In this document: piece by piece, positions 3,680 to 41,779 of the stretch
How positions within the stretch are numbered: the stretch's first letter is position 1
How the letters are laid out: every line of letters begins with the position of its first letter
From: Raja brachyura
Lineage: Eukaryota
Assembly: GCA_963514005.1 (NCBI GenBank)
Contig: OY740783.1
Span: 5,332,001 to 5,396,000 of the forward strand
Direction: 5' to 3'
Length of the DNA: 64,000 nt
The notes under the pieces: generated by a model
Database searches by the model: none
What the model was told of the DNA's origin: nothing
What the model saw: the letters and a program-made list of their open reading frames with translations, nothing else
Translations under genes and position numbers: made by a program

Positions 3680-4291
3680 GTGAGTGCACAATGGGAAATT
3701 GAGTCTTTACTCAAGAAAGGGGTAATTGAGAGGTCGAGTCATGAGCCTCACCAGTTTGTGTCCAATATATTTACTAGGAAGGATGGAGGATGTCGAATCA
3801 TTCTTGATTTAACTGAGCTTAACAACTTTGTGCAGTATAAACACTTCAAAATGGAAAACGTTGTCACTGCCAAACAACTGGTTTCCAAAGGATGTTACAT
3901 GGCATGCATTGACCTCAAAGATGCTTACTATTCAGTGGCCATTCATGAAGACCACAGGAGATATTTGAAGTTTAGCTGGATGGAGCAATTGTGGCAGTTT
4001 AAAGCATTGCCTAATGGGTTAATCTCAGCACCCAGACTATTCACAAAATTGCTGAAACCAGTCCTGGAGCTACTCAGGGCACAGAATCATATAGTCATGG
4101 CATATTTGGATGACATCTTAATCATTGGGAAGACTTTGGAATTAGCTGAATTATCTGTGTCAGCTACCAAACTCATGTTTGAGAGACTGGGGTTTCCAAT
4201 CCATTCAGTTAAGTCTAAATTGGTATCATCTAGGATAATTGATTATTTGGGATTTACCATTAACTCAATGCAAATTGGGGCAAGCAATTAG
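3680..4291 (+). pseudogene. DIRS reverse transcriptase domain
   Basis: Motifs KDGGCRIILDL..LN, HFKME, IDLKDAYY, FKALPNGL..APRLFTK, YLDD and YLG. Frameshifted downstream. Confidence 0.92.
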
Positions 4292-22211: not shown

Positions 22212-22330
22212 TGTAATATGAAAGTGCATTAGCAGTCTGTGACGAAGATGCCAGGGCCTTCAAAGAGTACGATAATCGATATTTTGCCCGACTCTTCAAT
22301 CGGGTGGAAAAGTAAGTGGAATGAACTCGC

Positions 22331-22458
22331 CTTCACCAGAGTTACGGCAGCGCCGTAGGAAATGCTCAGGAAGAACAGGATAATGAATGTGGAAGCGGTT
22401 GTCCAGATGTTGTCTCTGTCTTCCTCATAGTCCTCAATACGAACGTCGTCGGCGTAAT
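22331..22458 (-). CDS. IGHM: IgM transmembrane exon TM1
   Basis: Not in the ORF track. gcgtag| DYADDVRIEDYEEDRDNIWTTASTFIILFFLSISYGAAVTLVK |GCGAGT: an acidic spacer followed by the conserved antigen-receptor TM motif (WTTASTFI.LF.LS..Y...VT). Confidence 0.95.
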
Positions 22459-23110
22459 CTACGCAAAGCAGAACGCGAAGACATTCACAGTGTTTTCTTA
22501 TATATTACATTGTATTTTATTTATTACTTACCAAAATAATACGAATATTAATATTGGGGATATTAATTTACTATGAACTGTTTTTACGCTGAGGTAATCA
22601 CCCTCAATAAATATATACAAAATCATGACCATTTGTAGCCACAGCAGCTAATAAAGAACCGTTTATGAATAGTTTTAGAGAAAGCCATGTGTATGTATAT
22701 TTCTGGGATTAATTGTTCATTTTATAAACGTCCGCTTCCCATTAATATAATTTTCTAACCGAGATGATATAAAAATGGAAACTGGTTATTGCTTACAATG
22801 TTATCAGATAAACCTTTATTTGGAGTTGGCGACCGGACCTCGGCGAAGGAACTCACTGAACGCAAACATTGCCATAATTCCCACATTAGAACCCTGTTGT
22901 CTGATGTATCCTGTTTTCGGATAGGTAATGGAGGAAGGCTTGTCTACAAAAATAGCTTTAAACTATTTAATAGGCAATACTTTTTCTGGTGTAAAATATG
23001 GAGCATGAATTAATCTACGGTTACACTTAGTCTTTTGGAACGCGTGGAAAACTACTGGTTAAATGATCTGAATTGCCCTTGCCTTTGCCTGTAACTGGGA
23101 GGACGTGTAT

Positions 23111-25046
23111 NNNNNNNNNNNNNNNNNNNNNNNNNNNNNNNNNNNNNNNNNNNNNNNNNNNNNNNNNNNNNNNNNNNNNNNNNNNNNNNNNNNNNNNNNN
23201 NNNNNNNNNNNNNNNNNNNNNNNNNNNNNNNNNNNNNNNNNNNNNNNNNNNNNNNNNNNNNNNNNNNNNNNNNNNNNNNNNNNNNNNNNNNNNNNNNNNN
23301 NNNNNNNNNNNNNNNNNNNNNNNNNNNNTGTGAGTGTGTGCCTGTGTATGTGTGTGTGTGTGTGAGTGGGTGCGTGTGTGTATNNNNNNNNNNNNNNNNN
23401 NNNNNNNNNNNNNNNNNNNNNNNNNNNNNNNNNNNNNNNNNNNNNNNNNNNNNNNNNNNNNNNNNNNNNNNNNNNNNNNNNNNNNNNNNNNNNNNNNNNN
23501 NNNNNNNNNNNNNNNNNNNNNNNNNNNNNNNNNNNNNNNNNNNNNNNNNNNNNNNNNNNNNNNNNNNNNNNNNNNNNNNNNNNNNNNNNNNNNNNNNNNN
23601 NNNNNNNNNNNNNCGTAGTTGTAGAAAATCTATTTCAACATCAATCAGGATTTGTGAAGAAGAAAAATATTATACGAGTCAATATATCTGCTACCGTGTA
23701 TTGGCACGGGAAATTTGCTGTGAAGGTCCATTGGTATTAAAGTGAGCGTCTAAATGTATTTGTGTTGTATTCATGTGTTTTATTTTGTGTAAATATGCGC
23801 TTTTAGATAACCGTTCCTATTATTTTGCATTTCACAGAATGTTTGATTACTGGCCTGTTTAGGTGGATGTCCATGTGCTATGGTGTATATATGTCGTTAA
23901 TTGTGTTTTATGTATGTTTCTATGCGACCCATAAATTATTTTATTTTCGTGCGCTGGCTGATGTTTTGTGATTAGTGTGCTCCGTGTACTTCTGGGGGAG
24001 AGCTGGAAACGGAGTTGCCCTTGTCTAACGCTCGAGCCGGGTGCTATTAAATCCCTCGCCGCATCTGATATTGGGCTCGAAGTTCGTGTTCTCACCAGCC
24101 GCTCAGACCGGTGATCCCATCAATCGCCTGCACACACTATCAGGGGCGATGACCGTTTATTAAGTGAGCGCCACAGTATTCTCGACCCGAAATTAAACAG
24201 CCCACTTCTTCATGGGAATAATCTATTCTGCTGACACTTTATTCCTGAGCTTTCAAGTTGCACTTAGTTGTACTTGGAATTACGTTGCTTTCATTTTTAT
24301 CATTTAATGGAGGCCAAATCACTGGATGGATTTAAGAGAGTTGGATAGAGCTCTCGGGGCTAGTGGAGTCAAGGGATATGTGGAGAAGGCAGGCACGGGT
24401 TATTGATAGCGGACTATCAGCCATGATCACAATGAATGGCGGTGCTGGCTCGAAGGGCCGAATGGCCTCCTCCTGCACCTATTTTCTATGTTTCTAAAAA
24501 TAAATTGGATAGGTATATGGACGGGAAAGGAATGGAGGGTTATGGTCTGACTGCAGGTAGATGGGACTAGGTGAGAGTAAGTGTTCGGCACGGACTAGAA
24601 GGGCCGAGATGGCCTGTTTCCGTGCTGTAATTGTTATATGGTTATTGCATTGATATCGGCTGTTTGGACTCTGCGTTCCAGAAGACTTTCAGCGATAACA
24701 TTGTCTTTTCATTAATATATGGAGGTTCCACTCTCATTCCTTATTTTTGGGCGTGTTTGTGTGTGTGTGTGTGTGCCTGCGTGTGTATGAGTGTGCTTGT
24801 GCATGTGCTTGTGTGTATGTGTGCCTGTGTGTGTGAGTGCGTGTGTGCGCGCGTGTGAGTTTGATTGTGAGTGTGTGCCTGTGTATGTNNNNNNNNNNNN
24901 NNNNNNNNNNNNNNNNNNNNNNNNNNNNNNNNNNNNNNNNNNNNNNNNNNNNNNNNNNNNNNNNNNNNNNNNNNNNNNNNNNNNNNNNNNNNNNNNNNNN
25001 NNNNNNNNNNNNNNNNNNNNNNNNNNNNNNNNNNNNNNNNNNNNNN
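23111..25046. other. Assembly gaps (23111-23328, 23384-23613, 24889-25046; another at 39602-39753)
   Basis: N runs next to (TG)n or (GACA)n microsatellites. Confidence 0.99.
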
Positions 25047-25675
25047 CAGGCGTAGTTGTAGAAAATCTATTTCAACATCAATCAGCATTTGTGAAGAAGA
25101 AAAATAAGTGTGTGTGTGTTAGTATGTGTGTGTGTGTGTGTGTGTGTGAGTGTGTGTGTTTATATTGTTAATCCTCGTGCAATTGTGCAAATATGTTGAG
25201 TACATGGCACTATGTAAACGTTTCACGTGATTATGCAGATGGGCGTTCACACAATGAGACATTGAATGTGGATTTCAATCCATATGTGGAAATAGAAATG
25301 TGTGCAGAAATATGCGTGACAGACGCATGGCAAATTACAAGTTCCCCTCATGCGGGCGGAAGAGGACGAGTTGCTACGACGTCTCACATCCTGCCTCGGA
25401 TCTGAATGGATTGGAAACAGGAGAAGGAGAGAAATGGAGATCCACAGACATGGACCCATATCTGCCCAGCAAGAGCAATAATGTTGAAGTGAGTCCGCTA
25501 TTCGTGCAGCTGTGACTTATCTCCCAAACCCCGATGTTACTGTGTGTGCAGTCTGCATCCGTTTTCCGTGAATGGTCGGCAAGATTTTCAAGTATCAACG
25601 TCATCGTTTTGGCAAATGTTCTGTATAATTAATTGGGTGGCCATGTGTTCAGCTCAAGATTGGAAGTTAAATGTA

Positions 25676-25718: not shown

Positions 25719-26110
25719 TTATTGACAGGAATTGACAGTGTCCATCAATACAAGGGAAACGTTGACAAAACTGGGTTTACCGCTAGACTTATTGACCGTT
25801 CTGACGATGGTCTTCATGGGGAGTGCTTCGTGCCCCACCAGACAGGAGAAGGAGGCTCCGCTAGCCCACTCCGCTGCCCCAACGGATAACAGGCTGTAGG
25901 TGAAGAATGTGTCATTGCCGTTCTCCGCCACCACCTCGGTGTTCTTGTACTTGCTCCAATGCACCCGCTTGTCATCATGCATCCACGTTACGAAGACCCT
26001 GCGAGGGGAGAATCCTCTCACAAAGCAGGTGAGGGTGATAGTCTTGTGCGCGGAGATCTCTTCTGTCGGCGGCAGAAGGACTGAGACGGACGGTGTCAGC
26101 AGATGTTGAC
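25719..26110 (-). CDS. IGHM: IgM constant exon CH4 plus secretory tailpiece (internal donor for the membrane form after 25781)
   Basis: ccgtag| [15 protein letters not shown]...[11 protein letters not shown]...[18 protein letters not shown]...[24 protein letters not shown]. The tail has an N-glycosylation sequon (NVS) and a penultimate Cys, as in mu. Internal donor AGC G|GTAAAC. Confidence 0.97.
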
Positions 26111-26143
26111 CTACGGGACAATTCAAATGGCGTTTATTTATTT

Positions 26144-27033
26144 GGGAGGTTTCACGGCAGTCGGGTCACGACCCGTGACCCGTACCGTTGCCGCGCCACG
26201 CCAACTGGAGTACACACGATGAACTGCAGGTAAGCACTGGCCATTGTTTCCAGCGTAGCGGGCCCGTTAAAACCCACCAAAATGGTCCATTTCTGCGCTG
26301 TAAATAATTATGGAAATTGGGATAAGCGCGAGAGACATTTAGCCTACTTCAGAATTCCAAAAGTGAGGAGAAATGACGGTAGATAGAAGCGAGAGCTGAA
26401 GGGACAACAACAGTCCGAGTGCTTGGCGAACATTGGCCGTTTGCTCACTGCATTTCATCAACTACGGTATTATTTGTGTTTTTTCTTGATTCCTTTGGCA
26501 TCTAAAAAGTTTCCGAAGTGATAAATCTGGCTGTAAAATTTTAAAATCGCCCATGGTTCTCAAGTGGGTTTTTACATATGAAAAGAAAACGCCTCTGAAG
26601 TAAAATTTACAGCCAGGTTTATCACTTCTGAGACTTTTTAGATACCAAAGGAATCAAGAAAAACCACAAATAATGCCTTACTGTTGATGAAATGCAGTGA
26701 GCAAACGCGAGAATTCCCAATATTTTAAAATTCTGATATCTGCACGGCCAATGTTCGCCAAGCACTTTAGCTGTTGTTGTCCCTTCAGCTCTCGCTTCTC
26801 TTTACCTTCATTTCGCTTCACCTTTGGAATTCTGAAGTTGGGTACGTGTCCCTCACGCTTGCCCCGACTTCCACAATTTCTCACAGCGCCAAAATTCAAC
26901 ATTTTGGCGGTTTTTAACAGGTAGGAAAGTGTGCGTTTCTTGCATTAATAACATGTACTGGAAGCTGTGATGTCCTCCAGATGGATTGAGTGGCTCCGTG
27001 CGTCAAGCCCAGTGACCTAACGTGCAACCCCCC
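26144..27033. mobile_element. Foldback/MITE-type non-autonomous DNA transposon in the CH3-CH4 intron
   Basis: Long imperfect palindrome (~26260-26545 versus ~26600-26920) with termini gggaggtttcacg...cgtgcaacccccc. Confidence 0.7.
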
Positions 27034-27149
27034 TATTAACGGTATTACATTCCCCTTTTGTGACGTCTCTTTGTTCAGACATCTACAGCTGAATGTGTGT
27101 CTCCCCTTTGCACGGGAGAAGATTTGTATGAAATGGGAAGTGTCAGTGA

Positions 27150-28157
27150 TGCAGTTGAACAAAGGGGACTATGTAGGCAGGAGGGAGGAGCAGGCTAAGG
27201 TAGACTGGAAAGGGATCCCAGCAGGAATGACGGTGGAACACCAATGGCAGGAATTTCTGGGCAAAATCCGGAAGACACAGGATCACTTCATTCCAAAAAG
27301 AAAGAAAGATTCCAAGGAGAGTAGGAGGCAACTGTGGATGACAAGAGAAGTTAGGGATAGAATAAGACTAAAAGGAAAAAAATGTATAACACAGCAAAGA
27401 GTAGCCGGAAGCCAGAGGATTGTGAAAATTTCATAGGACAACAGAAGGAAACAAAATGGGCAATACGGGCTGAAAAGATGAAGTACGAGAGGAAGCTGGC
27501 CAGGAATATAAAGAAGAACAGTAAAGCTTCTTTAGATATTTTAAGGGAAAAAGAGTAGCAAAGTCAAATGTGGGTCCCTTGAAGGCAGACACGGGTGAAA
27601 TTATTATGGGGAACAAGGAAATGGCAGAAGAGTTGAACAGGATCTGTCTTCATTAAGGAAGACACAAACAAACTCCCAGATGTACTGGAGGACAGTGGAT
27701 CTAAGGGGGTAGAGGAACTGAAAGAAATGTTCATTAGGTGAGAAATAGTATTGGGTAGGCTAATGGGACTGAAGGATGATAAATCCCCTGGGCCTGATGG
27801 TCTGCATCCCAGGGTCCTCAGGGAGGCGGCTCTCGAAATAGTGGAACCATTGGTGATCATTTTCCAATTTTCAATAGATTCAGGATCAGTTCCTGTGGAT
27901 TGGAGGATAGCTAAGTTATCCCACATTTCAAGAAAGGAGCGAGAGAGAAAATGAGGAATTACAGACCAGTTAGCCTGATTTCGGTGGTGGGGAAGATGCT
28001 GGAGTCAATTATTAAAGAGGTAATAATGGGGCATTTGGATAGCAGTAAAAGTATTAGTCCAAGTCAACATGGATTTATGAAAGGGAAATCATGCTTGACT
28101 AATCTACTGGATTTTTTTGAGGATGTGACAAGTAAAATTACCTTTGATAAGGTCCCG
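27150..28157 (+). mobile_element. CR1 ORF2 fragment in the CH3-CH4 intron
   Basis: KSPGPDGLHPRVL, NYRPVSL and QHGFMKGKSCLTNL motifs. Confidence 0.85.
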
Positions 28158-28279
28158 CACTATTTCATTTTGCATAGATATTTCTTCTCCGACGGAGTGA
28201 TCTCAATCATTAATTTTAGCTTTATCTCAGAAAAAAGTGCACCAGTCACCTCTGGCCCACAGAACCTCCCTGCACTCAC

Positions 28280-28582
28280 CTTTCTTCCAGTTGATTTGTT
28301 TTGATTTTGGGTACGGCAGATCTACATGGCTCACCACACATTCGAAATCATCCCCACTCAGCCAGTCACGAGTCGAAATGTTTACTTTGCTCTCTACGAT
28401 TTCCCCATGTTCTGTGGACTGGATCTCTAATGGCAAAGGCACCTTTATGCGGTTCCAAGATACTGTGATACCGTAAGGTGCATCGGATACCAGACAGATT
28501 AACGTCACGGTCATCTCCATTAACTCTTGTTCAACAGGTGGTGGAAGGATTGTAATCTTCAGTTCGTCGCAGGGATCATCAT
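28280..28582 (-). CDS. IGHM: IgM constant exon CH3
   Basis: ctatag| DDDPCDELKITILPPPVEQELMEMTVTLICLVSDAPYGITVSW...VNISTRDWLSGDDFECVVSHVDLP...NWKK |GTGAGT. 303 nt; the ILPPPVEQ and APYG motifs are typical of elasmobranch mu CH3. Confidence 0.95.
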
Positions 28583-29044
28583 CTATAGCACAATAATTAA
28601 TGTGAATATAAGCATTTGCAGGGGTAATTAGGATGGAAGGTTTACACCAATCATTCGCCCCCAGAACTTTAATGTGTACACGATGGCTTCTGAGTTGTGA
28701 TTATGGGAACTGTGGTCCTAAATCATCTTGAACTGACTCTAGTCTCTGTGCAGAGAACAACACAATGAGTGAAATGAGAGATCGCACCATGGGCTATCGT
28801 TTTTTTGTAGACTCATACCTTTAGTGTCCCTCTCCACTAATACTAGAAGAGTCTCGACCCGAATCGTCACCTGTTCCTTTTTTCTAGAGATGCCTAACCC
28901 GCTGTTACTCCGGCATTTTGTGTCCACTTTCGGTGTAAACCAGCATCAGCACTTCCTTCCTATGTCAATGTCAGTGAAGTTCTACCACTGTGAGCACTAA
29001 TGTTTACACTAATACCCGAGACACACCACGGATGTATTTCTTAC

Positions 29045-29353
29045 CTTGCCTACTGATATTTTGGCTTTTTATATATTTTCCATGGTTGACTTGGCAGGTA
29101 TAGACGGCACGTCCGTTCCACTCTAGAGCTGGGATTGTCAACTGGCTGGTCGCTGAGAAGTTACCGTTAACGTTCACCTGGAAGGCGGGAGAGGTGATGC
29201 CAGAATCCACTTGATTTCCATTCTTCAGCCAGTTCACAGTAAATTTCGCTGGGGTGAAATCGTTGACCAAACACACAGCGATCGCTTTTTTGCTGCGCTT
29301 GATTTCATCAAGGGAAGTTACGGTAATGGTGACGGTTGGATGTACCACAGGTT
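29045..29353 (-). CDS. IGHM: IgM constant exon CH2
   Basis: tttcag| EPVVHPTVTITVTSLDEIKRSKKAIAVCLVNDFTPAKFTVNWLKNG...FSATSQLTIPALEWNGRAVYTCQVNH...NISRQ |GTAAGA. 309 nt, phase 1/1. Confidence 0.95.
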
Positions 29354-29555
29354 CTGAAAGAAAATAAACTTCATTGGAATTGCTCTAAAACAATCGTCGA
29401 TTAATATTGACACATTATTTTGACCAAAAAAAATAAATCACTTTTTCCGATTAAACGTAGCCACCCACTCACTTGGACTTGCAGAGATGCTGCTAAATTC
29501 TTTGTTTATCATGGTACATCGAGTGCTCGTAAATGGGGAAATTATAGTTCAGTAA

Positions 29556-31878: not shown

Positions 31879-32175
31879 CTGGTAATGGCACTTTATACTC
31901 TTTTTGGTTGTGCCGAACCACACAGAAGATGTCGCTTCCCCCAGCCACTGCCTCGGTGATGGTTAACTCGCTGCTCCGGGTGTAAGTTCCCAACTTATTG
32001 AACACTGCCGGGTAGTTCTTCACTCCATCGACCAGGTCTGTATCATCTTTCTTCCAAGAGACACTGGCGCCCGCAGGGGAATAGCCCAACGCCAAACAAC
32101 CGTAGGTGAACGAACCACTGGAGCCGTGATCCTCGCACGTGAAGAGAATGAAGGGGCTGGGGGGGGAATCAGCCG
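31879..32175 (-). CDS. IGHM: IgM constant exon CH1
   Basis: ttgcag| AADSPPSPFILFTCEDHGSSGSFTYGCLALGYSPAGASVSWKKDD...YPAVFNKLGTYTRSSELTIT...IFCVVRHNQKEYKVPLP |GTTCGT. 297 nt, phase 1/1, C1-set Cys-Trp-Cys pattern plus an extra N-terminal Cys (likely light-chain bond). Confidence 0.95.
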
Positions 32176-33084
32176 CTGCAAGTCAAAGGTCACATGAATG
32201 TTAAACTCTCTCTCTTGCTTGTTTTGCAAAATATTCAGTGCGGAATCATTATACAGCAATTCGTTACGCAATATTCTATTTCATGAAACTTCACCCGAGT
32301 ATCATAAACTATTAGTTCAACATAGAAAATGGAAACATAGAAAATAGGTGCAGGAGGAGGCCATTCGGCCCATTGAGCCAGCACCGCCATTCATTGTGAT
32401 CATGGCTGATTCAACATTCCACCTTGATCCCACCTTGGAGCACATTGGCTGAAAACTTCTTAGGGTGCCAATATCTGGCAGTTACTGTCAAATGTATGCA
32501 CAATTTTAAGTTGGAAATATATCAATAGGCCTCCAGTATTAATTACTGTAAAATTCCCTGGGTTTCTCAGGAATGCTCAATGGCCATAACTAACGTTACA
32601 ATCTCACCAAACTCCTTGTTGTGACTGGGGATGATGGAGTAAGGGCAGAACTAGGGGATACAGTGTGGACACGTGTGAGGGCCTCGTCTATGGTAAACGT
32701 GGGGAATACCCGCTCCCTAAAGAATGAGGAGCGCGGATATTCTGGTATGGAACAACTCATCTTGGGAGCAGTTGCGCGGAGACGGTTGAATTTGGGAATA
32801 GGACATAGAGTCTTTGCATGAGGCAAGGTTGGAAGAGCTGTAGTCCTGATAGCTGTGAGAGTCCGTAGATTTGCAATTTACGACAGTCGATATTCTATCT
32901 CCTGCGATGGAGACGGTGAGATAAACAAAGTGGAGGCATTGTGTCGGGGATGGACCCGGTGAAATTGATCGTAGGGTCTCAGTTAGTAGCTAATGAAGTC
33001 CATGAGTTCTCCATGAGTATAGGAGGAAGAATACGGGGATAGGGGCAGTCTGTGTCAGGGGTTGTTCCATGTACCCAACCAAAT

Positions 33085-33250
33085 GGAAATTGGTGAAATG
33101 ATGTGGAATGTTGGAAACAAAATGTTCTGCTATTTTAATTATAGAACAGGGTATCCCACTAATACTTGAATAGAATGAGAATTGGAATCGATGGCTCAAA
33201 GGAGGATTTGACTGATGTTCAAAATTACATTTGCATTAATTTAATTAAAA
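33085..33250. promoter_or_regulatory. J-C intron octamer module, copy 1 (ATTTGCAT at 33229-33236)
   Basis: Perfect Oct site within a ~165-bp AT-rich block that has an inverted copy at 34782-34947. Confidence 0.5.
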
Positions 33251-33829
33251 TTAAATAATTAGGTAGGTTTCGCTTGGACCCATGAGAGTGCCCATGGCAA
33301 AACATTTGATTTGGAGAGAAGAGTTTGGGTTTTATAAATGGTTCAGAGACTATCCGATCAATTCACAGAAATTGGAAAGATGACTGGTTTACCATATCGG
33401 GCTCCCGAACATAAATTGAGAGAAGACAAAAAAAAAATCACAATCTTGCCATGAACTTGTCCCTAAAATGTGTCAATCGAACCAAACCAACTAAGGAGGT
33501 GGATGGGATTGAAATGGTAGCTCTATTATTTAACAACAAATAACACACCTAAAATGTCACTTTGCACTGTATTTTGTGAAATATCACTCCTATCACTCAC
33601 GAAAATATACTGATCATTTGTATGCCGACAGTAATTACAAGTAAATTCCGAAAAGCAATCCAGCCGACATTGGATAAGAACATTACATTCATACCAGATA
33701 AAAAATATGGAAGAGATTGCATTGGTAAAGATTTTAATTAACTCTCTCAATATAATGTCTACATTAATAAACGTTATGTATTCCAACATCTGGAAGCTAA
33801 ATGTAGCATATAAATTGTAAGAACACTCC

Positions 33830-34385
33830 TGACTCAAAATTAATAATATTAGGAATATTAGAACACATCAATTAATAACAACGAATAAAATAATTTTTAT
33901 CGATTACAGTTTAATAATTGGGAAAAAATTAATATTGAAATTTTGGAAAGGTCCTACATCCCCCACAATCAAAATGTGGATTACAGGAATATCGGAGACA
34001 CTTCACCTGGAAAGATTAAGACTTGTCCTACTGGGCAAGTTGGATCAATTCAGAGGGATATGGTCTCCATTTATTGAATATTTAAAGGGTCAAAATGGCT
34101 CGGGCGAGAACCTGACTGAAGCCTGAATGAAGGAATAGATGAAGAATCACATATAATAATCCATGGATATATCTCCAATGATGTATAACCTGCTCAATAC
34201 TTCATTCATCTTTTTGATTTTCTATTTTTACTTTATTTTTCTCTATTATTTTCTACCTGTATTAAAAATTTAAAAAAATGCATAGAAGTACAAATAAGAA
34301 ATAATTGTTAATATTAATGTGACATGTATATTCTTCCTTTAATATGTACTTCTAATAAAAATATTTAACAAAAAGAAAAATAAAT
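33830..34385 (+). mobile_element. L1 3' fragment in the J-C intron
   Basis: KFWK...PTIKMWI...ETLHLERLR ORF similar to the L1 end at 48273-48875; AATAAA and an A-rich tail. Confidence 0.75.
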
Positions 34386-34781
34386 AAATAGTAAGAACAT
34401 GTTAGTACTTCGCCATTGAATCAATTGGCACAGGTTTCAAATGTTTGTCTGTGTGCACCATTGCAATGGACTGTCCCTTAATGGATTCAAAAATTAATCA
34501 AATGAATAATAATGTTTTTGCAATGACGCTCAGTTCCGTTTCCAGCATCTTTAAAACGAGTTTACGTTTACAATATCATCGGCACTGGAGAACGAATGAT
34601 TAGCGTTGTATCACTGTCTGATCAGAAACGAATTAAAAAGATACCCATCATAAATTACAACCTGCAATCTATTAAAAAAAAATTCGAAGTTTGCTTCGTG
34701 ACTTTAACGGCAAAAGTCTTTAATTCATATAGAGGAAGTCTACTTTTAATAGTGAAAATGCACAATGTTGGTAAATCAATG

Positions 34782-34947
34782 TTTTAATTAATTAAATGCA
34801 AATGTAATTTTGAACGTCGCTCAAACCCTCCTATGAGCCATCGATTTAAATTCTGATTCTATTCAAGGATTAGTGGGATACCCTGTTCTATAATTAAAAT
34901 AGCAGAAAATGTTGTTTCCAACATTCCACTTCATTTCCCCAATTTCC
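34782..34947. promoter_or_regulatory. J-C intron octamer module, copy 2, inverted (ATGCAAAT at 34796-34803)
   Basis: Diverged reverse complement of 33085-33250, with the octamer intact. Confidence 0.5.
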
Positions 34948-36317
34948 TTTTTTTTACCGTAAATTACATTTTGCAATTTAGTAAATAGAGGAACGTTATG
35001 TTTAAATGACATTGGGCGCCTTAGACAAAATTTGATTTCAAATTGTCTTTCTAATAAATGCGTGGATTCAAAATTATTTAAATACTACAGCTGTTCCGAA
35101 ATGTCCCCATTTGACATTCAACGTATTTTCCAAATAGGTAATGTCGTGGTATTGAACAGGAAATTGAGACATGGGTCATCGGGTCGGGCAACACTTGTGG
35201 AAGGGGAAAACCAATACATTTCCAGGTCAACGATACTTGGATGACCAGTTCATGGCAAATTCAATTAAGATTAGAGATGGAACAAAGAAATAGATCTTTC
35301 TGCCAACCGAATCCACGGCGACACACACGTTCTACCCCAATACCGATGTCAGGCCAACTGCTCTGTCATTCCCTGCTTTCTCTCTCCCTCCTATCTTGAA
35401 AAGTGGGATCACATTATCTACCCTTAATCCACAGGAACTGATGCAGAATCTATAGGACATTGGAGACTGATTACCAATGCTTCCACGATATGGAGACACA
35501 CCGCCTTCCCAACCCATTGTTCAAGCGATTTTGATTGCAACATGCGCCTTAATTGAGTTCAACAAAGAAACTGACAAGTTACTAAAGAACTATGCACTTC
35601 TGTGCTTTGCTGCAAGAAAATGATACATCTTCAATGCAAGTTTTGTTAGCCATTGGATCAAAGGTGGCAATGCGATTCCACCAATTAATACATGCACTTC
35701 TTAAATACAAAACTTGGACATTTTACACCCAGGATTTATCCCTTTCTATCGTTTGTTTCATATAGAAACATAGAAAATAGGTGCAGGAGGAGGCCATTCG
35801 GCCCTTCGAGCCAGCACCGCCATTCATTGTGATCATGGCTGATCATCCCCAATCAATAACCCGTGCCTGCCTTCTCCCCATATACCTTGATTCCACTAGC
35901 CCCTAGAGCTCTATCTAACTCTCTCTTAAATCCATGCGTTGAGAAATATGCGTTGAGAACAAACAAACTGAGACAAAGCACCCGCTGTTGATCAGAAAAC
36001 ACAGTTAGATGCATCGCTGATCTAGGACCACAACAGTCTCAAACAATTTGAAAGCATGGTGAAGGCAAATTCAAGCACATTTTTCGACTAATTAGGAACT
36101 AAATCACACCCGTTTCATCGTCAAAGGATCGAAGTCATAGCATACAAGGCACGTTTAATTCGGGAATCTTACTGCAGCGAAATCACATAACATTCTAAAG
36201 CAACATCGATCCAACATTGCAATGAATTGGTAATTAATGCAGAAGACAATTATTGGAATTATATATTAAAATTACAACTGGATACATCTAGAGACTGAAT
36301 AGGATGAAGTTTCTTAC

Positions 36318-36365
36318 CGTTGGTTACGGTCAACATGGTGCCTCCTCCCCAGTAGCCAAGATAGT
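36318..36365 (-). CDS. IGHJ: JH segment
   Basis: Encodes YLGYWGGGTMLTVTN (WGxG motif) and ends at the donor G|GTAAGA. Confidence 0.95.
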
Positions 36366-36404
36366 CACGGTGTTACATTCTATGGGGTTCTTCACACAAT
36401 AACA
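36366..36404 (-). other. J 23-bp-spacer RSS
   Basis: Plus strand cacggtg - 23 nt - acaataaca, abutting the J coding end. Confidence 0.9.
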
Positions 36405-36731: not shown

Positions 36732-36795
36732 TGTTTTTGTATTGGTAGGAACCGCTGTGCCAGTATACACAGTGAAACATGCCATGACAAATACT
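36732..36795 (-). other. DH2 segment (coding 36760-36767, TATACTGG) flanked by two 12-RSS
   Basis: Plus strand: tgtttttgt-12 nt-cgctgtg [ccagtata] cacagtg-12 nt-acaaatact. Confidence 0.93.
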
Positions 36796-37045
36796 TCACT
36801 CTTCAAGAACTGATACATGCACTGCTCACAGAGGATATGTCCCCGGGCACAATTCGCCGTCACTTTTAAAGCTAAACGGTGTTCTTCCAAAGCTCATATA
36901 ACATAACGTTAACTGGTCGGAAGATAGTTGGACATTTCTCAAAAACAATCCATATAACTTTAAGCAGTGAACTTCCATTTGAATTTGCTTCGCTCGGCTC
37001 TCCAGCTGTGCTCGTAGGTTGGAACAGGAGAAAACTAGGTGTGGG

Positions 37046-37124
37046 GGTTTTTGTACGGGGAAGTCGCTGTATGCAGCACCGTGACCCACTGCTGTACACA
37101 GTGAGACATACCCGCACAAAAACC
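37046..37124 (-). other. DH1 segment (coding 37084-37096, TACAGCAGTGGGT) with 12-RSS on the V side and 22-RSS on the J side
   Basis: Plus strand: ggtttttgt-22 nt-caccgtg [acccactgctgta] cacagtg-12 nt-acaaaaacc. Both nonamers are perfect. Confidence 0.95.
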
Positions 37125-37676: not shown

Positions 37677-37715
37677 CGCTCTTGTACGGGTCTGTCACTG
37701 AATCCTCACACTGTG
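37677..37715 (-). other. V 23-bp-spacer recombination signal sequence
   Basis: Minus strand CACAGTG - 23 nt (TGAGGATTCAGTGACAGACCCGT) - ACAAGAGCG. The nonamer has 3 mismatches to ACAAAAACC. Confidence 0.92.
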
Positions 37716-38019
37716 TCTCTCGCACAGTAATAGACAGCGGTGTCTTCGATCCTCAGGTCCCTGGCGGTCACGCTGAACATATTATTCGAATTGTCTTTGG
37801 ACGGAGTAAATCGGCTCTCTATCCCCGGAGCGAAGGACTTGTCAGTAGGACTGTAGTAGTAAATCAGCCACTCCAGCCCCTGCCCGGGGACCTGACGGAC
37901 CAAATACATATTGGTGCTGCTAACACTGAACCCGCTGCCTTTACATTCCAGTGTGATGGAGCCTCCAGGACGGGCCGTCGCTGTCTTGGGCTGAGTTAGA
38001 ACGACATCGGAATGGACAC
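37716..38019 (-). CDS. IGHV: Germline VH segment (L2 + V exon)
   Basis: Acceptor ttgcag| is followed by VHS-DVVLTQPKTATARPGGSITLECKGSGFSVSSTNMYLVRQVPGQGLEWLIYYYSPTDKSFAPGIESRFTPSKDNSNNMFSVTARDLRIEDTAVYYCAR. Both canonical Cys, GLEW and DTAVYYCAR are present, there are no stops, and an RSS follows directly. Confidence 0.97.
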
Positions 38020-38181
38020 CTGCAAGTTATAAAAGGCATGAATGGTGAGGATAAAATACTGACCATTAATCCCCGACACTAATTATCAAGAGGAAAGACA
38101 TTGGGAGGGTTGAAGGTGAATGGCATTGGGGATCTACCACTGAGAAACCTGCGTGAGGATTTTGTCCAACTCGTTACTCAC

Positions 38182-38227
38182 GGACTATTAACGCCAGGAA
38201 CAGACTCAGTGAAACCGCCGACCTCAT
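38182..38227 (-). CDS. IGHV: Ig heavy-chain leader exon (L1) of the IgM cluster
   Basis: Minus strand ATG AGG TCG GCG GTT TCA CTG AGT CTG TTC CTG GCG TTA ATA GTC C|GTGAGT encodes MRSAVSLSLFLALIV, a hydrophobic signal peptide. The phase-1 donor splices across a 162-nt intron to the V exon, giving ...LIVRVHS/DVVLTQ. Confidence 0.92.
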
Positions 38228-38320
38228 CCCGCTGGGAAGTGTGACCCGGTTTGTTTCTGTACAGAACCTCGCAACAAACCCACTGCAAGGAAGATGGATT
38301 TCGGACCCTCTTGGAGAGAA

Positions 38321-38360
38321 TTAAATACCCGGCAAAAGAGGGCGTGGCTGTGGGCGGGGC
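38321..38360 (-). promoter_or_regulatory. Putative VH core promoter (TATTTAA box and GC box)
   Basis: TATTTAA on the minus strand ~95 nt upstream of the leader ATG, and GGGCGGGG at ~38352. There is no octamer in the proximal promoter. Confidence 0.5.
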
Positions 38361-38407
38361 CTGTAAACCGAGTGGTGCAACGGGCGGAGCTGAGACACGG
38401 CTCCCAG

Positions 38408-39192
38408 AGAAACATAGAAACATAGGTGCAGGAGTAGGCCATTCGGCCCTTCGAGCCTGCACCACCATTCAATATGATCATGGCTGATCATCCAACTCAG
38501 TATCCTGTACCTGCCTTCTCTCCATACCCCCTGATCCCTCTAGCCACAAGGGCCACATCTAACTCCCTCTTAAATATAGCCAATGAACTGGCCTCAACTA
38601 CCTTCTGTGGCAGAGAATTCCACAGACTCACCACTCTGTGAAAAATGTTTTTCTCATCTCGGTCCTAAAACAATTCCCCCTTATCCTTAAACTGTGACCC
38701 CTTGTTCTGGACTTCCCAAACATCGGGAACAATCTTCCTGCATCTAGCCTGTCCAACCCCTTGAGAATGTTGTAAGTTTCTATAAGATCCCCCCTCAATC
38801 TTCTAAATTCTTATAGAAACTTACAAAATTCTCAAGGGGTTGGACAGGCTAGATGCAGGAAGATTGTTTCCGATGTTGGGGAAGTCCAGAACAAGGGGTC
38901 ACAGTTTAAGGATAAGGGGGAAATATTTTAGGACCGAGATGAGAAAAACATTTTCACACAGAGAGTGGTGGGTCTCTGGAATTATCTGCCACAGAAGGTA
39001 GTTGAGGCCAGTTCATTGGCTATATTTAAGAGGGAGTTAGATGTTGCCCTTGTGGCTAGAGGGATCAGGTGGTATGGAGAGAAGGCAGGTATGGGATACT
39101 GAGTTGGATGATCAGCCATGATCACATTGAATGGTGGTGCAGGCTCGAAGAACCGAATGGCCTTCTCCTGCACCTATTTTCTATGTTTCTAT
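38408..39192. mobile_element. Head-to-head inverted pair of CR1 3' ends
   Basis: 38408-38790 (minus) is the reverse complement of 38810-39192 (plus); both tails point outward. Confidence 0.88.
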
Positions 39193-41127
39193 GCAATGAA
39201 ATGGGCTCAAGAAACGACCATGCGTCGCAAGACCTATATGGAGTCCACTGGGAAAAAATAAATGTTTCATCAGAGATAGCTACTTGAGGTAACGGAGGTT
39301 GAAACCTTCCCATGTGATTCAGCGCGGTCTAATTTAAAACAGACCGACAAGGCAACAGTTCGGGAGATTATGTTTCATTGCACCGCTGTATTCAGTGGTT
39401 TCAAAATGCCAGGATGCAAAAGCACAGCCTATGCATTGACAGTTGACCACATTAATTGAAGGATGAAAACCATAGATTCAGGCTGAACAAAATGGAAATA
39501 AAATGACAAGAGATGTGAGTGTGTGAGCAATATTTGAGGTAGACAGACAGACGGACGGACAGACCGACACAGACCGACACAGACAGACACAGACCGACAC
39601 ANNNNNNNNNNNNNNNNNNNNNNNNNNNNNNNNNNNNNNNNNNNNNNNNNNNNNNNNNNNNNNNNNNNNNNNNNNNNNNNNNNNNNNNNNNNNNNNNNNN
39701 NNNNNNNNNNNNNNNNNNNNNNNNNNNNNNNNNNNNNNNNNNNNNNNNNNNNNTCAAAGGTAGACACAGAATGCTAGTGACATAGAAACATATAACACAG
39801 AGAGTGGTGAGTCTCTGGAATTCTCTGCCACAGAAGGTAGTTGAGGCCAGTTCATTGGCTATATTTAAGAGGGCGTTAGATGTGGCACTTGTGGCTAAAG
39901 GGATCAGGGGGTATGGAGAGAAGGCAGGTACGGGATACTGAGTTGGATGATCAGCCATGATCACATTGAATGGCGGTGCAGGCTCGAAGGGCCGAATGGC
40001 CTACTCCTGCACCTATTTTCTATGTTTCTATGTTTCTATAAAATAGGTGCAGGAGGAGGCCACTCGGCCCTTTGAGCCAGCACCGCCATTCATTGTGATC
40101 ATGGCTGATCGTCCCCTATCAATAACCCGTGCCTGCCTTCTCCCCATATCCCTTGACTCCACTAGTCCCTAGAGCTCTATCTAACTCTCTCTTAAATCCA
40201 TCCAGTGACTTGGCCTCCACTGCCCTCTGTGGCAGGGAATTCCATAAATTCACAACTCTCTGGGTGAAAACGTTTTTTTCTCCCCTTTATTCGAAGACAT
40301 TTATTCCCCTTTATTCTGACATTTCTGGTCGAGACCCTTCTTCAGACTTCTCCAGAGATACAGTCTGTCACCGTTGAGTTACTCCAGCATTTTGTGTCTC
40401 CCTTCGATTAAAACCAGCACCTGCAGTTCCTTCCTACACATTCGTTGTCAATATCGAATCATATTGGGACTGTCCATTCCAATTTCGAGTTTAGTTACAG
40501 AAAAGGCAGTAGGGAGAAATGATAATAATGCAAACACAACGTTATATTAAAATGTCATCAAGAGTTCCAAAGGAAATTAATGGATGTTACGGGTGCAGGA
40601 GTGGAATTGTAGATCTGTCGAGTGATTGGAGAAATTATCGGCATTAGGGATGATTCCTGTGGTGTTGATATTCCATAGAGCAAAGTTGAATGAAGACAAG
40701 TTCCAAACAATGAATCAATTAACACATTTGTTGGACAGTGTTACAATGATCCAGACTGCACTGGCTGGGCGAATGGTGTCTAATTGAGATATCTGAAGAA
40801 GAATCCACTAGTGTTATCTGAGGAGAGAGATAGAAATAGTCATTAACCGATGCGTGAGGAAAACACAAGGAATGTGGAACATTTAAGGTGCAGACAGGCA
40901 AATCAATGTTCCTGCGTTCCAACATACTATTCTTCCACGACTTTGAATTGGAATTAATCATTGTATTTTCTGTGCATCTGTGAATTTGTTACGTGTGGCA
41001 TTCAAATGTATGCAGAGAATGGAATTGATCCCAGCCATTGTTGGAAAATATGATACATGTTCTTAGTTAACCTAGCTTTGTAGGGAATATTGCGTTAAAG
41101 AAGGAACTGCAGATGCTGGAGAATCGA

Positions 41128-41278: not shown

Positions 41279-41779
41279 TTGTTGGGAATATTATTGACTA
41301 CCATCATCCATATGAACTTCAACTTTGTTTATTTTTTATACGAGTGAACGTTGACAACTTAAACTAAATTTCTCTGAAGTAGTCAGTTGGGAGATTTGCA
41401 TTTCTTTCTCACTTTATCAGTTTTGCACCTCTCGGGAAACATTGACTCCATTTCTGTCCTTCAGTAAACGAACTTAGGTCTGGGGCTGTTGAAATCAGCG
41501 TTTATTTAAATCAGCTCATCTCTGTTTCCAGCCACTTTTAGAGCAACACAAACCAGGCAATGAAGACACCATTCTCAACGGCGATGATATGTTTTAAGGA
41601 TATTGGCAGTTGGCGCGAATCAACTGAACTCTCTGAAGGAGTCCATTTCTTCATTTCTCGTTCAAATAAATTGATGGGATTGAAAATTATGGATTCACTT
41701 CAGAATATTATTTTGCTGCCCACTTGAATCTCCACTTGCAGGGATGTTTGAGCAAATGAGGTCAATAGAGGAATCACAA

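Follow-up and report, generated by a model that had tools for sequence, protein, structure and literature searches.

The pair of inverted, octamer-bearing blocks in the J-Cmu1 intron of a skate IgM gene is a real inverted duplication, confined to IgM loci as far as the searches go and ordinary in origin, and is probably a harmless repair scar. We favour, as somewhat better than an even bet, an account in which a single octamer was copied, pasted once by a repair template switch and then passively spread by cluster duplication, without added function. Throughout the text, "the window" denotes the whole stretch of 64,000 nucleotides that we analysed, "copy A" the arm close to the C exons and "copy B" the arm close to J.

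The pair lies between J (36306-36360) and Cmu1, in an intact cluster-type IgM gene on the minus strand that comprises a leader, V, two D regions, J, four C exons, a secretory tail and TM1 (Table 1). The exons, the recombination signals and the V-set and C1-set domains confirm the locus anatomy proposed in the original prediction, namely a cluster-type IgM gene with the modules in its J-Cmu intron. The absence of an octamer from the V promoter, also proposed there, holds as well: no octamer with 0 or 1 mismatch occurs in the 570 bp upstream of the leader ATG. The skate promoter agrees in this respect with shark IgH promoters, which lack the octamer according to the accessible part of PMC2435157.

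Table 1. Features of the IgM gene and of its J-Cmu1 intron, in positions of the window.
Feature	Position	Strand	Remark
VH leader exon	38181..38227	-	promoter upstream without octamer
VH exon	37709..38020	-	open; V-set; recombination signal then follows
two D regions	36750..37110	-	recombination signal pairs 37083/37097 and 36759/36768
JH segment and heptamer of its signal	36306..36366	-	
copy B, J-proximal arm	34782..34951		putative original, IgM-specific intron DNA
octamer ATGCAAAT of copy B, ATTTGCAT in gene sense	34796..34803	+	CAAATG overlapping at 34799
LINE 3' end with A-rich tail	33826..34399	+	9-bp target duplication 33817-33825 / 34391-34399; high repeat depth
retroelement part upstream of insertion, reads LQIKCFAMGTLMGPS	33261..33325	-	7 dispersed non-Ig matches
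copy A, C-proximal arm	33081..33260		~175 bp inverted insertion (~33086-33260) within retroelement fragment
octamer of copy A, ATGCAAAT in gene sense	33229..33236	-	E-box overlapping at 33228
decayed retroelement RT fragment, downstream of insertion	32613..33085	-	63-72% identical to dispersed copies
Cmu1 exon	31892..32175	-	C1-set
Cmu2, Cmu3, Cmu4, secretory tail with penultimate Cys at end	25722..29354	-	approximate bounds
TM1 exon	22330..22470	-	approximate bounds

Several further observations concern the V region of this gene. Just upstream of the V promoter, at 38419-40280, a short and abundant repeat occurs in inverted copies nested within one another (arms of up to 236 nt, 94-97% complementary). 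The VH promoter itself (38228-38380) contains GC-box-like CCGCCC words, a TATA-like TATTTAA and, just before the ATG, CACTTCCC, which we take to be an Ets-like word; its TATA region is 70% alike at the divergent C35 locus described below. One position in framework 2 of VH is normally a tryptophan. At this place the VH exons of the window (37709-38020), L047 and L086 read LVRQ or LIRL, while IgW-like V exons keep WVKQ.

The two arms (33081-33250 and 34782-34951) are 170 nt long each and 1531 nt apart. They match at 154 of the 170 positions (91% complementary), which is far above chance for an inverted repeat (E 1e-53). In each arm a perfect octamer is directly followed by a G, giving the word CAAATG, so that all parts of the predicted structure (diverged inverted blocks, perfect octamers and the overlapping E-box) were recovered. 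None of the 16 octamers outside the module is followed by a G; the overlapping E-box comes down to one ancestral G. The AT-rich setting that had been described is equally real, with a GC content of 31.6% for the span of the pair versus 43.9% for the window, and 5% of the windows of equal size are as AT-rich; part of it is contributed by the lineage-specific LINE end, a repeat insertion of about 570 bp with a GC content of 27.8%.

The number of octamers, on the other hand, is not beyond chance, since 24% of the shuffles of the J-Cmu1 intron contain one octamer and the second octamer was copied from the first. The window as a whole is not enriched in octamers either (four seen versus 3.7 expected). 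Further perfect octamers are found in apparently non-repeat DNA at 4268, which is 18 kb downstream of TM1, and at 41394, which is 3.2 kb upstream of the leader. We ruled out a structured RNA, as the arms belong to no Rfam family (the only match in Rfam was below threshold and elsewhere in the intron) and the fold of arm B has z = -1.26. A coding origin of the arms was ruled out for want of an open frame of note.

The evidence on the origin of copy A comes from the sequence that it interrupts, a decayed retroelement that is presumably Penelope-like. At dispersed sites in the genome both flanks of copy A join directly and give a reverse-transcriptase motif, and a 32-nt pattern across this uninterrupted junction has 746 matches in the genome, while the control has none. 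As the retroelement is contiguous elsewhere, we conclude that copy A is a piece of about 175 bp inserted into a retroelement that is dead. Of the dispersed sites, 7 of the 31 matches of the 60 bp just inside copy A are such non-Ig sites. Among the Atlas neighbours of a relative, PF26215 (HTH_animal) is found in 14-28% of the members and PF00078 (RVT_1) in 11-27%; Pfam gave no name for either the retroelement fragment or the LINE end. The latter, which we assume from its motif to be L1-like, is exclusive to the 8 clusters of the C3:5.2-6.4 Mb array. It has widened the spacing between A and B, ancestrally about 1.0 kb, in these 8 clusters of the array to which the window belongs.

All matches found for copy B and its flanks are at IgM loci while copy A interrupts a dispersed retroelement, and for this reason B is the likely template. 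Across the clusters, the flanks of A align with flanks of A and the flanks of B with flanks of B, which argues for a single insertion event. Within a locus, A and B are 0.10-0.16 apart (0.23 at one locus), and the deepest distances between clusters are 0.12-0.23. In the tree, the branch separating the A and B groups is about 0.01 long and weakly supported (74/72), and the C3:128 Mb locus could not be placed. Because the distance between A and B resembles the deepest distance between clusters and this branch is short, the event seems to have happened shortly before the cluster radiation.

We therefore picture the history of the pair, on the strength of comparing the loci with one another, in the following way. 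Copy B, an AT-rich and octamer-bearing part of the IgM intron, would have been the original template, and an inverted copy of it, A, would have been pasted once into a dead retroelement about 1 kb away. The mechanism may have been a microhomology-mediated template switch during repair in the germ line. The module would then have been carried along as IgM clusters duplicated, probably without function. The copying direction from B to A, the template switch, the timing before the radiation and the functionless doubling are all things that we infer. Microhomology-mediated template switches do occur as germline variants, as stated in the accessible text of PMC8421209. As expected of a templated insertion, the insert breaks a sequence that is contiguous elsewhere, the template is nearby and inverted, and no other source turned up in searches that give lower bounds. 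The overlaps at the junctions would fit such a switch, although it counts against the account that they consist of only 2-4 A-rich nucleotides on one side and of AG on the other, with an AT-rich inner end, as read from sequences that are about 10% diverged. A staggered-break inversion was ruled out, since between the arms the retroelement goes on without a change of register or orientation.

The module appears to be confined to the IgM J-C introns, in line with the original prediction. In the 2.7 Gb genome, the best 40 matches of arm B (scored out of 51 candidates) all fall at IgM loci; common words were skipped in this search, so that the counts are lower bounds. The same is true of all 26 matches of a 24-nt core pattern with up to 3 mismatches (control 0), and of all 56 matches of copy B together with its flanks (34395-35330; 40 of 54 candidates scored). 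The module was not detected at 6 IgW-like loci (with the J-C intron fully covered in 2 of them) and at the 2 other V loci and 7 light-chain-like loci examined, and profile searches found none at the divergent IgM locus on C35. The arms are covered by contigs from three further organisms (runs X13, X17 and X19), and those of X13 and X19 span copy A. The pair thus did not arise in assembly, and close relatives share it; run X20 had low depth and little cover over the arms, and no RNA run was listed as a holder.

A search with Cmu1 found 27 loci with at least 78% identity, one with 50% and nine weak ones that are light-chain-like. Adding one V-J locus in which no Cmu1 was found (C17) to the first 27, we counted 28 IgM loci. 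Both arms are present in 23 of them, one arm or a fragment in four, and neither in one. A perfect octamer is found in both arms in 19 of the 28 loci, in at least one arm in 24 and in neither in four; the loci without one are L047, L050, L052 (germline-joined in frame) and L040 (unrearranged, with open V and C1 frames). Both arms occur in 13/13 unrearranged clusters and a perfect octamer in 12/13, the 13 being the product of two recent tandem expansions, and deletions of the module are confined to joined or orphan loci.

The rearrangement status of the clusters was judged from the comparison of loci and the translation after V. The unrearranged clusters belong to a tandem array at C3:5.2-6.4 Mb and another at C2:150.3-151.1 Mb, and most of the dispersed single IgM clusters are germline-joined (L047-L055 and L059; C2:156 Mb, C4, C5, C9, C15, C17, C24, C30 and C47). 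The joint is in frame in L048, L049 and L052 and out of frame in L050, L053, L054, L055 and C17, and V is joined to D in L036, L037, L042, L044 and L047. As for the light-chain-like loci, the V(J)-C intron contains a perfect octamer in three of six (L061:1690, L062:1746 and L064:1658, with a similar context in L061 and L064), and L060:3622 and L063:3615 have one upstream of V, at the position of a promoter octamer.

To quantify conservation, we compared parsimony changes with the base-matched expectation for the intron, in a tree whose 28 rows were the window, C17 and 26 IgM loci that had been fetched (C35 was left out). Relative to this expectation, copy A changed 1.16, copy B 1.21 and the retroelement 1.01 times as often. 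In terms of plain differences from the window between clusters, the arms differ by 6.5-16% (23% in one case) and the neighbouring intron and dead retroelement by 9-15%. As the arms change 1.2 times as often as the flanking intron, we ascribe the presence of the module across clusters to inheritance. Neither the two octamers, nor the duplication, nor this presence across clusters, all of which could be taken as signs of function, can therefore be used as such: the second octamer is a copy of the first, copy A is a local insertion into a dead retroelement, and the arms do not surpass this retroelement in conservation.

The octamers themselves have two substitutions each, four in total versus 8.0 expected (P = 0.10). 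This test has low power, because even the Cmu1 coding exon is close to neutral (0.93 of expectation). A one-base insertion in the B octamer of two loci lies outside the count, and one of the substitutions yields ATGTAAAT. A kB-like word, GGGTATCCC, was ruled out as a conserved element, with 5 and 4 changes versus 4.4 and 4.9 expected. In Cmu1 (31892-32175), the IgM paralogs show 0.67 changes per column at first codon positions versus 0.56 at third positions, which suggests relaxed or diversifying evolution of this exon.

Among the alternatives, the one that survives best holds that copy B belongs to a genuine IgM enhancer within the intron. Its octamer would be bound by Oct2 together with OCA-B, and this would make up for the octamer-less promoter. 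A MEF2-like word (34888) and two Ets-like words (34732 and 34988) would assist, and copy A would be an accidental second site that may add activity. We think that this is possible but doubtful. In its favour, copy B lies 1.35 kb downstream of J, much like the mammalian Emu (PMC9263370), OCA-B orthologs are present in sharks (PMC13043367), and the changed octamer ATGTAAAT equals a core variant of the catfish enhancer (PMC1800861), as far as the accessible parts of these papers go. The octamers, with half of the expected substitutions, are the slow part of the arms, and besides the retention of octamers and arms reported above, the MEF2-like word is kept in 20/24 loci and the Ets-like words in 21/24 and 22/25. 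However, words of the dead retroelement are retained equally well (GGGGAA in 25/25 and CAGTTG in 24/25), whole arms are not conserved above their flanks, and 26% of the 1997 eight-base windows of the intron change as little as either octamer. The lack of a module at the IgW-like, light-chain-like and C35 loci also speaks against this alternative. In mammals, moreover, the single octamer of Emu lies outside the enhancer core, according to the accessible text of PMC1800861, and in the skate arms the E-box overlaps the octamer.

Could the arms still contain a core of the mammalian type? No E2A-type site (CAGGTG, CACCTG or CAGCTG) occurs in either arm, and apart from the E-box that overlaps the octamer the arms contain none. 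An Emu-like core consists of clustered E2A-type E-boxes and Ets sites within about 220 bp; such a cluster is not seen here. The Ets-like TTCCCC in B is kept in 9/26 loci, and the nearest CAGCTG, kept in 18/25, is at 35088 and thus outside the arm. For lack of clustered sites, and with a conservation test of low power, we did not class the pair as Emu. The octamer in copy B is, for all that, a tentative candidate for an enhancer element. A bolder version makes copy B the very core of an Emu-like enhancer in a cluster-type IgH gene; it would provide the octamer missing from elasmobranch VH promoters and would have been doubled by a repair accident in the ancestor of nearly all IgM clusters of this lineage. 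This seems to us less likely again.

The inverted arrangement as such could also be functional, either as a stem in the pre-mRNA or as a DNA palindrome that aids AID targeting or recombination between clusters. Two columns (33171 and 33175) that are common to both arms within a lineage hint at gene conversion, and the architecture of a palindrome alters hypermutation in mice, as the accessible text of PMC4757795 has it. We nevertheless consider this improbable. Arm B is split by insertions in the C2, C4, C5, C15 and C17 loci, an arm or its octamer half is missing from five loci, the orientation of the inner segment relative to the gene is the same in 24/24 Ig matches, and within a lineage the distances between A and B are only about 0.01 below the additive expectation (range -0.024 to +0.013). 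With 2 shared versus 2 arm-specific columns and this residual of about 0.01, ongoing gene conversion between the arms was rejected and is a hint at most.

Finally, long inverted termini and an AT-rich interior would suit an old DNA transposon or MITE with the arms as its terminal inverted repeats (or else a small mobile element inserted twice), but this is largely refuted and very improbable: a genome-wide check, by which the original prediction could have fallen as a dispersed transposon end, found no arm copy outside IgM loci (0/40 scored and 0/26 pattern matches; the search with arm B had 11 candidates beyond those scored and the search with copy B and its flanks 14, so that rare old copies may have escaped), no target duplication surrounds the whole unit of A, interior and B, and this unit is not one insertion, since its interior holds the continuation of the retroelement that flanks A on the outside.

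The divergent IgM-like locus at G000:C35:31532119-31572118 (L089, L068, L057 and L069) deserves a separate description. Its Cmu1 is 51% and its Cmu4 82% identical. The locus looks as though leader, V, D and J had been deleted: it yielded no V exon, and DNA resembling a promoter is about 25 bp away from DNA like that of the J-C intron. A perfect octamer lies 2.6 kb upstream of its Cmu1, in the orientation opposite to that of B. The flanks of this octamer weakly resemble those of copy B at +/-30 bp (P = 0.012), but they do not at +/-50 and +/-80 bp (P = 0.19 and 0.17). The piece of the window at 32243-32300, about 70-125 bp upstream of the Cmu1 acceptor, aligns with the C35 locus (E 0.013 with the profile, 1.6e-4 from L049). 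No other non-coding DNA adjoining Cmu1 is conserved as well, and the piece may be a branch-point or a regulatory element. Two non-coding pieces between the secretory exon and TM1 (23957-24276 and 25205-25376) are collinear with C35 at 68% and 73%, and they could be an alternative place for candidate cis-elements.

What is at stake is how the small IgH clusters of sharks and skates are activated without a promoter octamer. The candidate that bears on this question is now narrowed to one block of 170 bp, and the two octamers and the presence across clusters should not count as evidence for it. In the parts of the literature accessible to us we found no functionally defined elasmobranch IgH enhancer, and primary shark or skate papers or their supplements may describe J-C introns. 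If copy B is an enhancer, the clusters with one arm, with no arm or with a mutant octamer would form a natural allelic series for differences in rearrangement and expression between clusters. If the pair is neutral, it is an ordinary repair scar and a marker of the IgM cluster radiation.

The skate pair can be compared with four known systems, each as described in the accessible text of the source. It shares with the mammalian Emu-MARs (PMC9263370, PMC1800861) the position between J and Cmu, a scale of about 200 bp, an octamer and AT-rich surroundings. Emu is a 220-bp core flanked by MARs (PMC9263370), whereas the skate arms lack an E2A-type site, show no excess conservation in a test of low power and are an inverted duplicate. 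The catfish Emu3' (PMC1800861) also has two octamer motifs, and one skate paralog carries its variant ATGTAAAT. However, Emu3' is located 3' of the IgM gene, has two variant octamers and a muE5 site and was tested for activity, while in the skate one octamer is a copy of the other and a distance of 1.0-1.6 kb or more separates the two. The hs3a/hs3b palindrome in the 3' regulatory region of the mouse IgH locus (PMC4757795) is likewise an inverted duplicate of a possible regulatory block; it measures 25 kb, in contrast to the skate arms, which are 170 bp long, intronic, decaying and interrupted or lost in paralogs. Templated insertions (MMB-TI, PMC8421209) resemble copy A in their nearby template, their inverted orientation and, as far as the diverged junctions can be read, their short microhomology. 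Copy A differs from them in its length of about 175 bp, in the distance of about 1 kb to its presumed template, and in being old, fixed and multiplied by cluster duplication.
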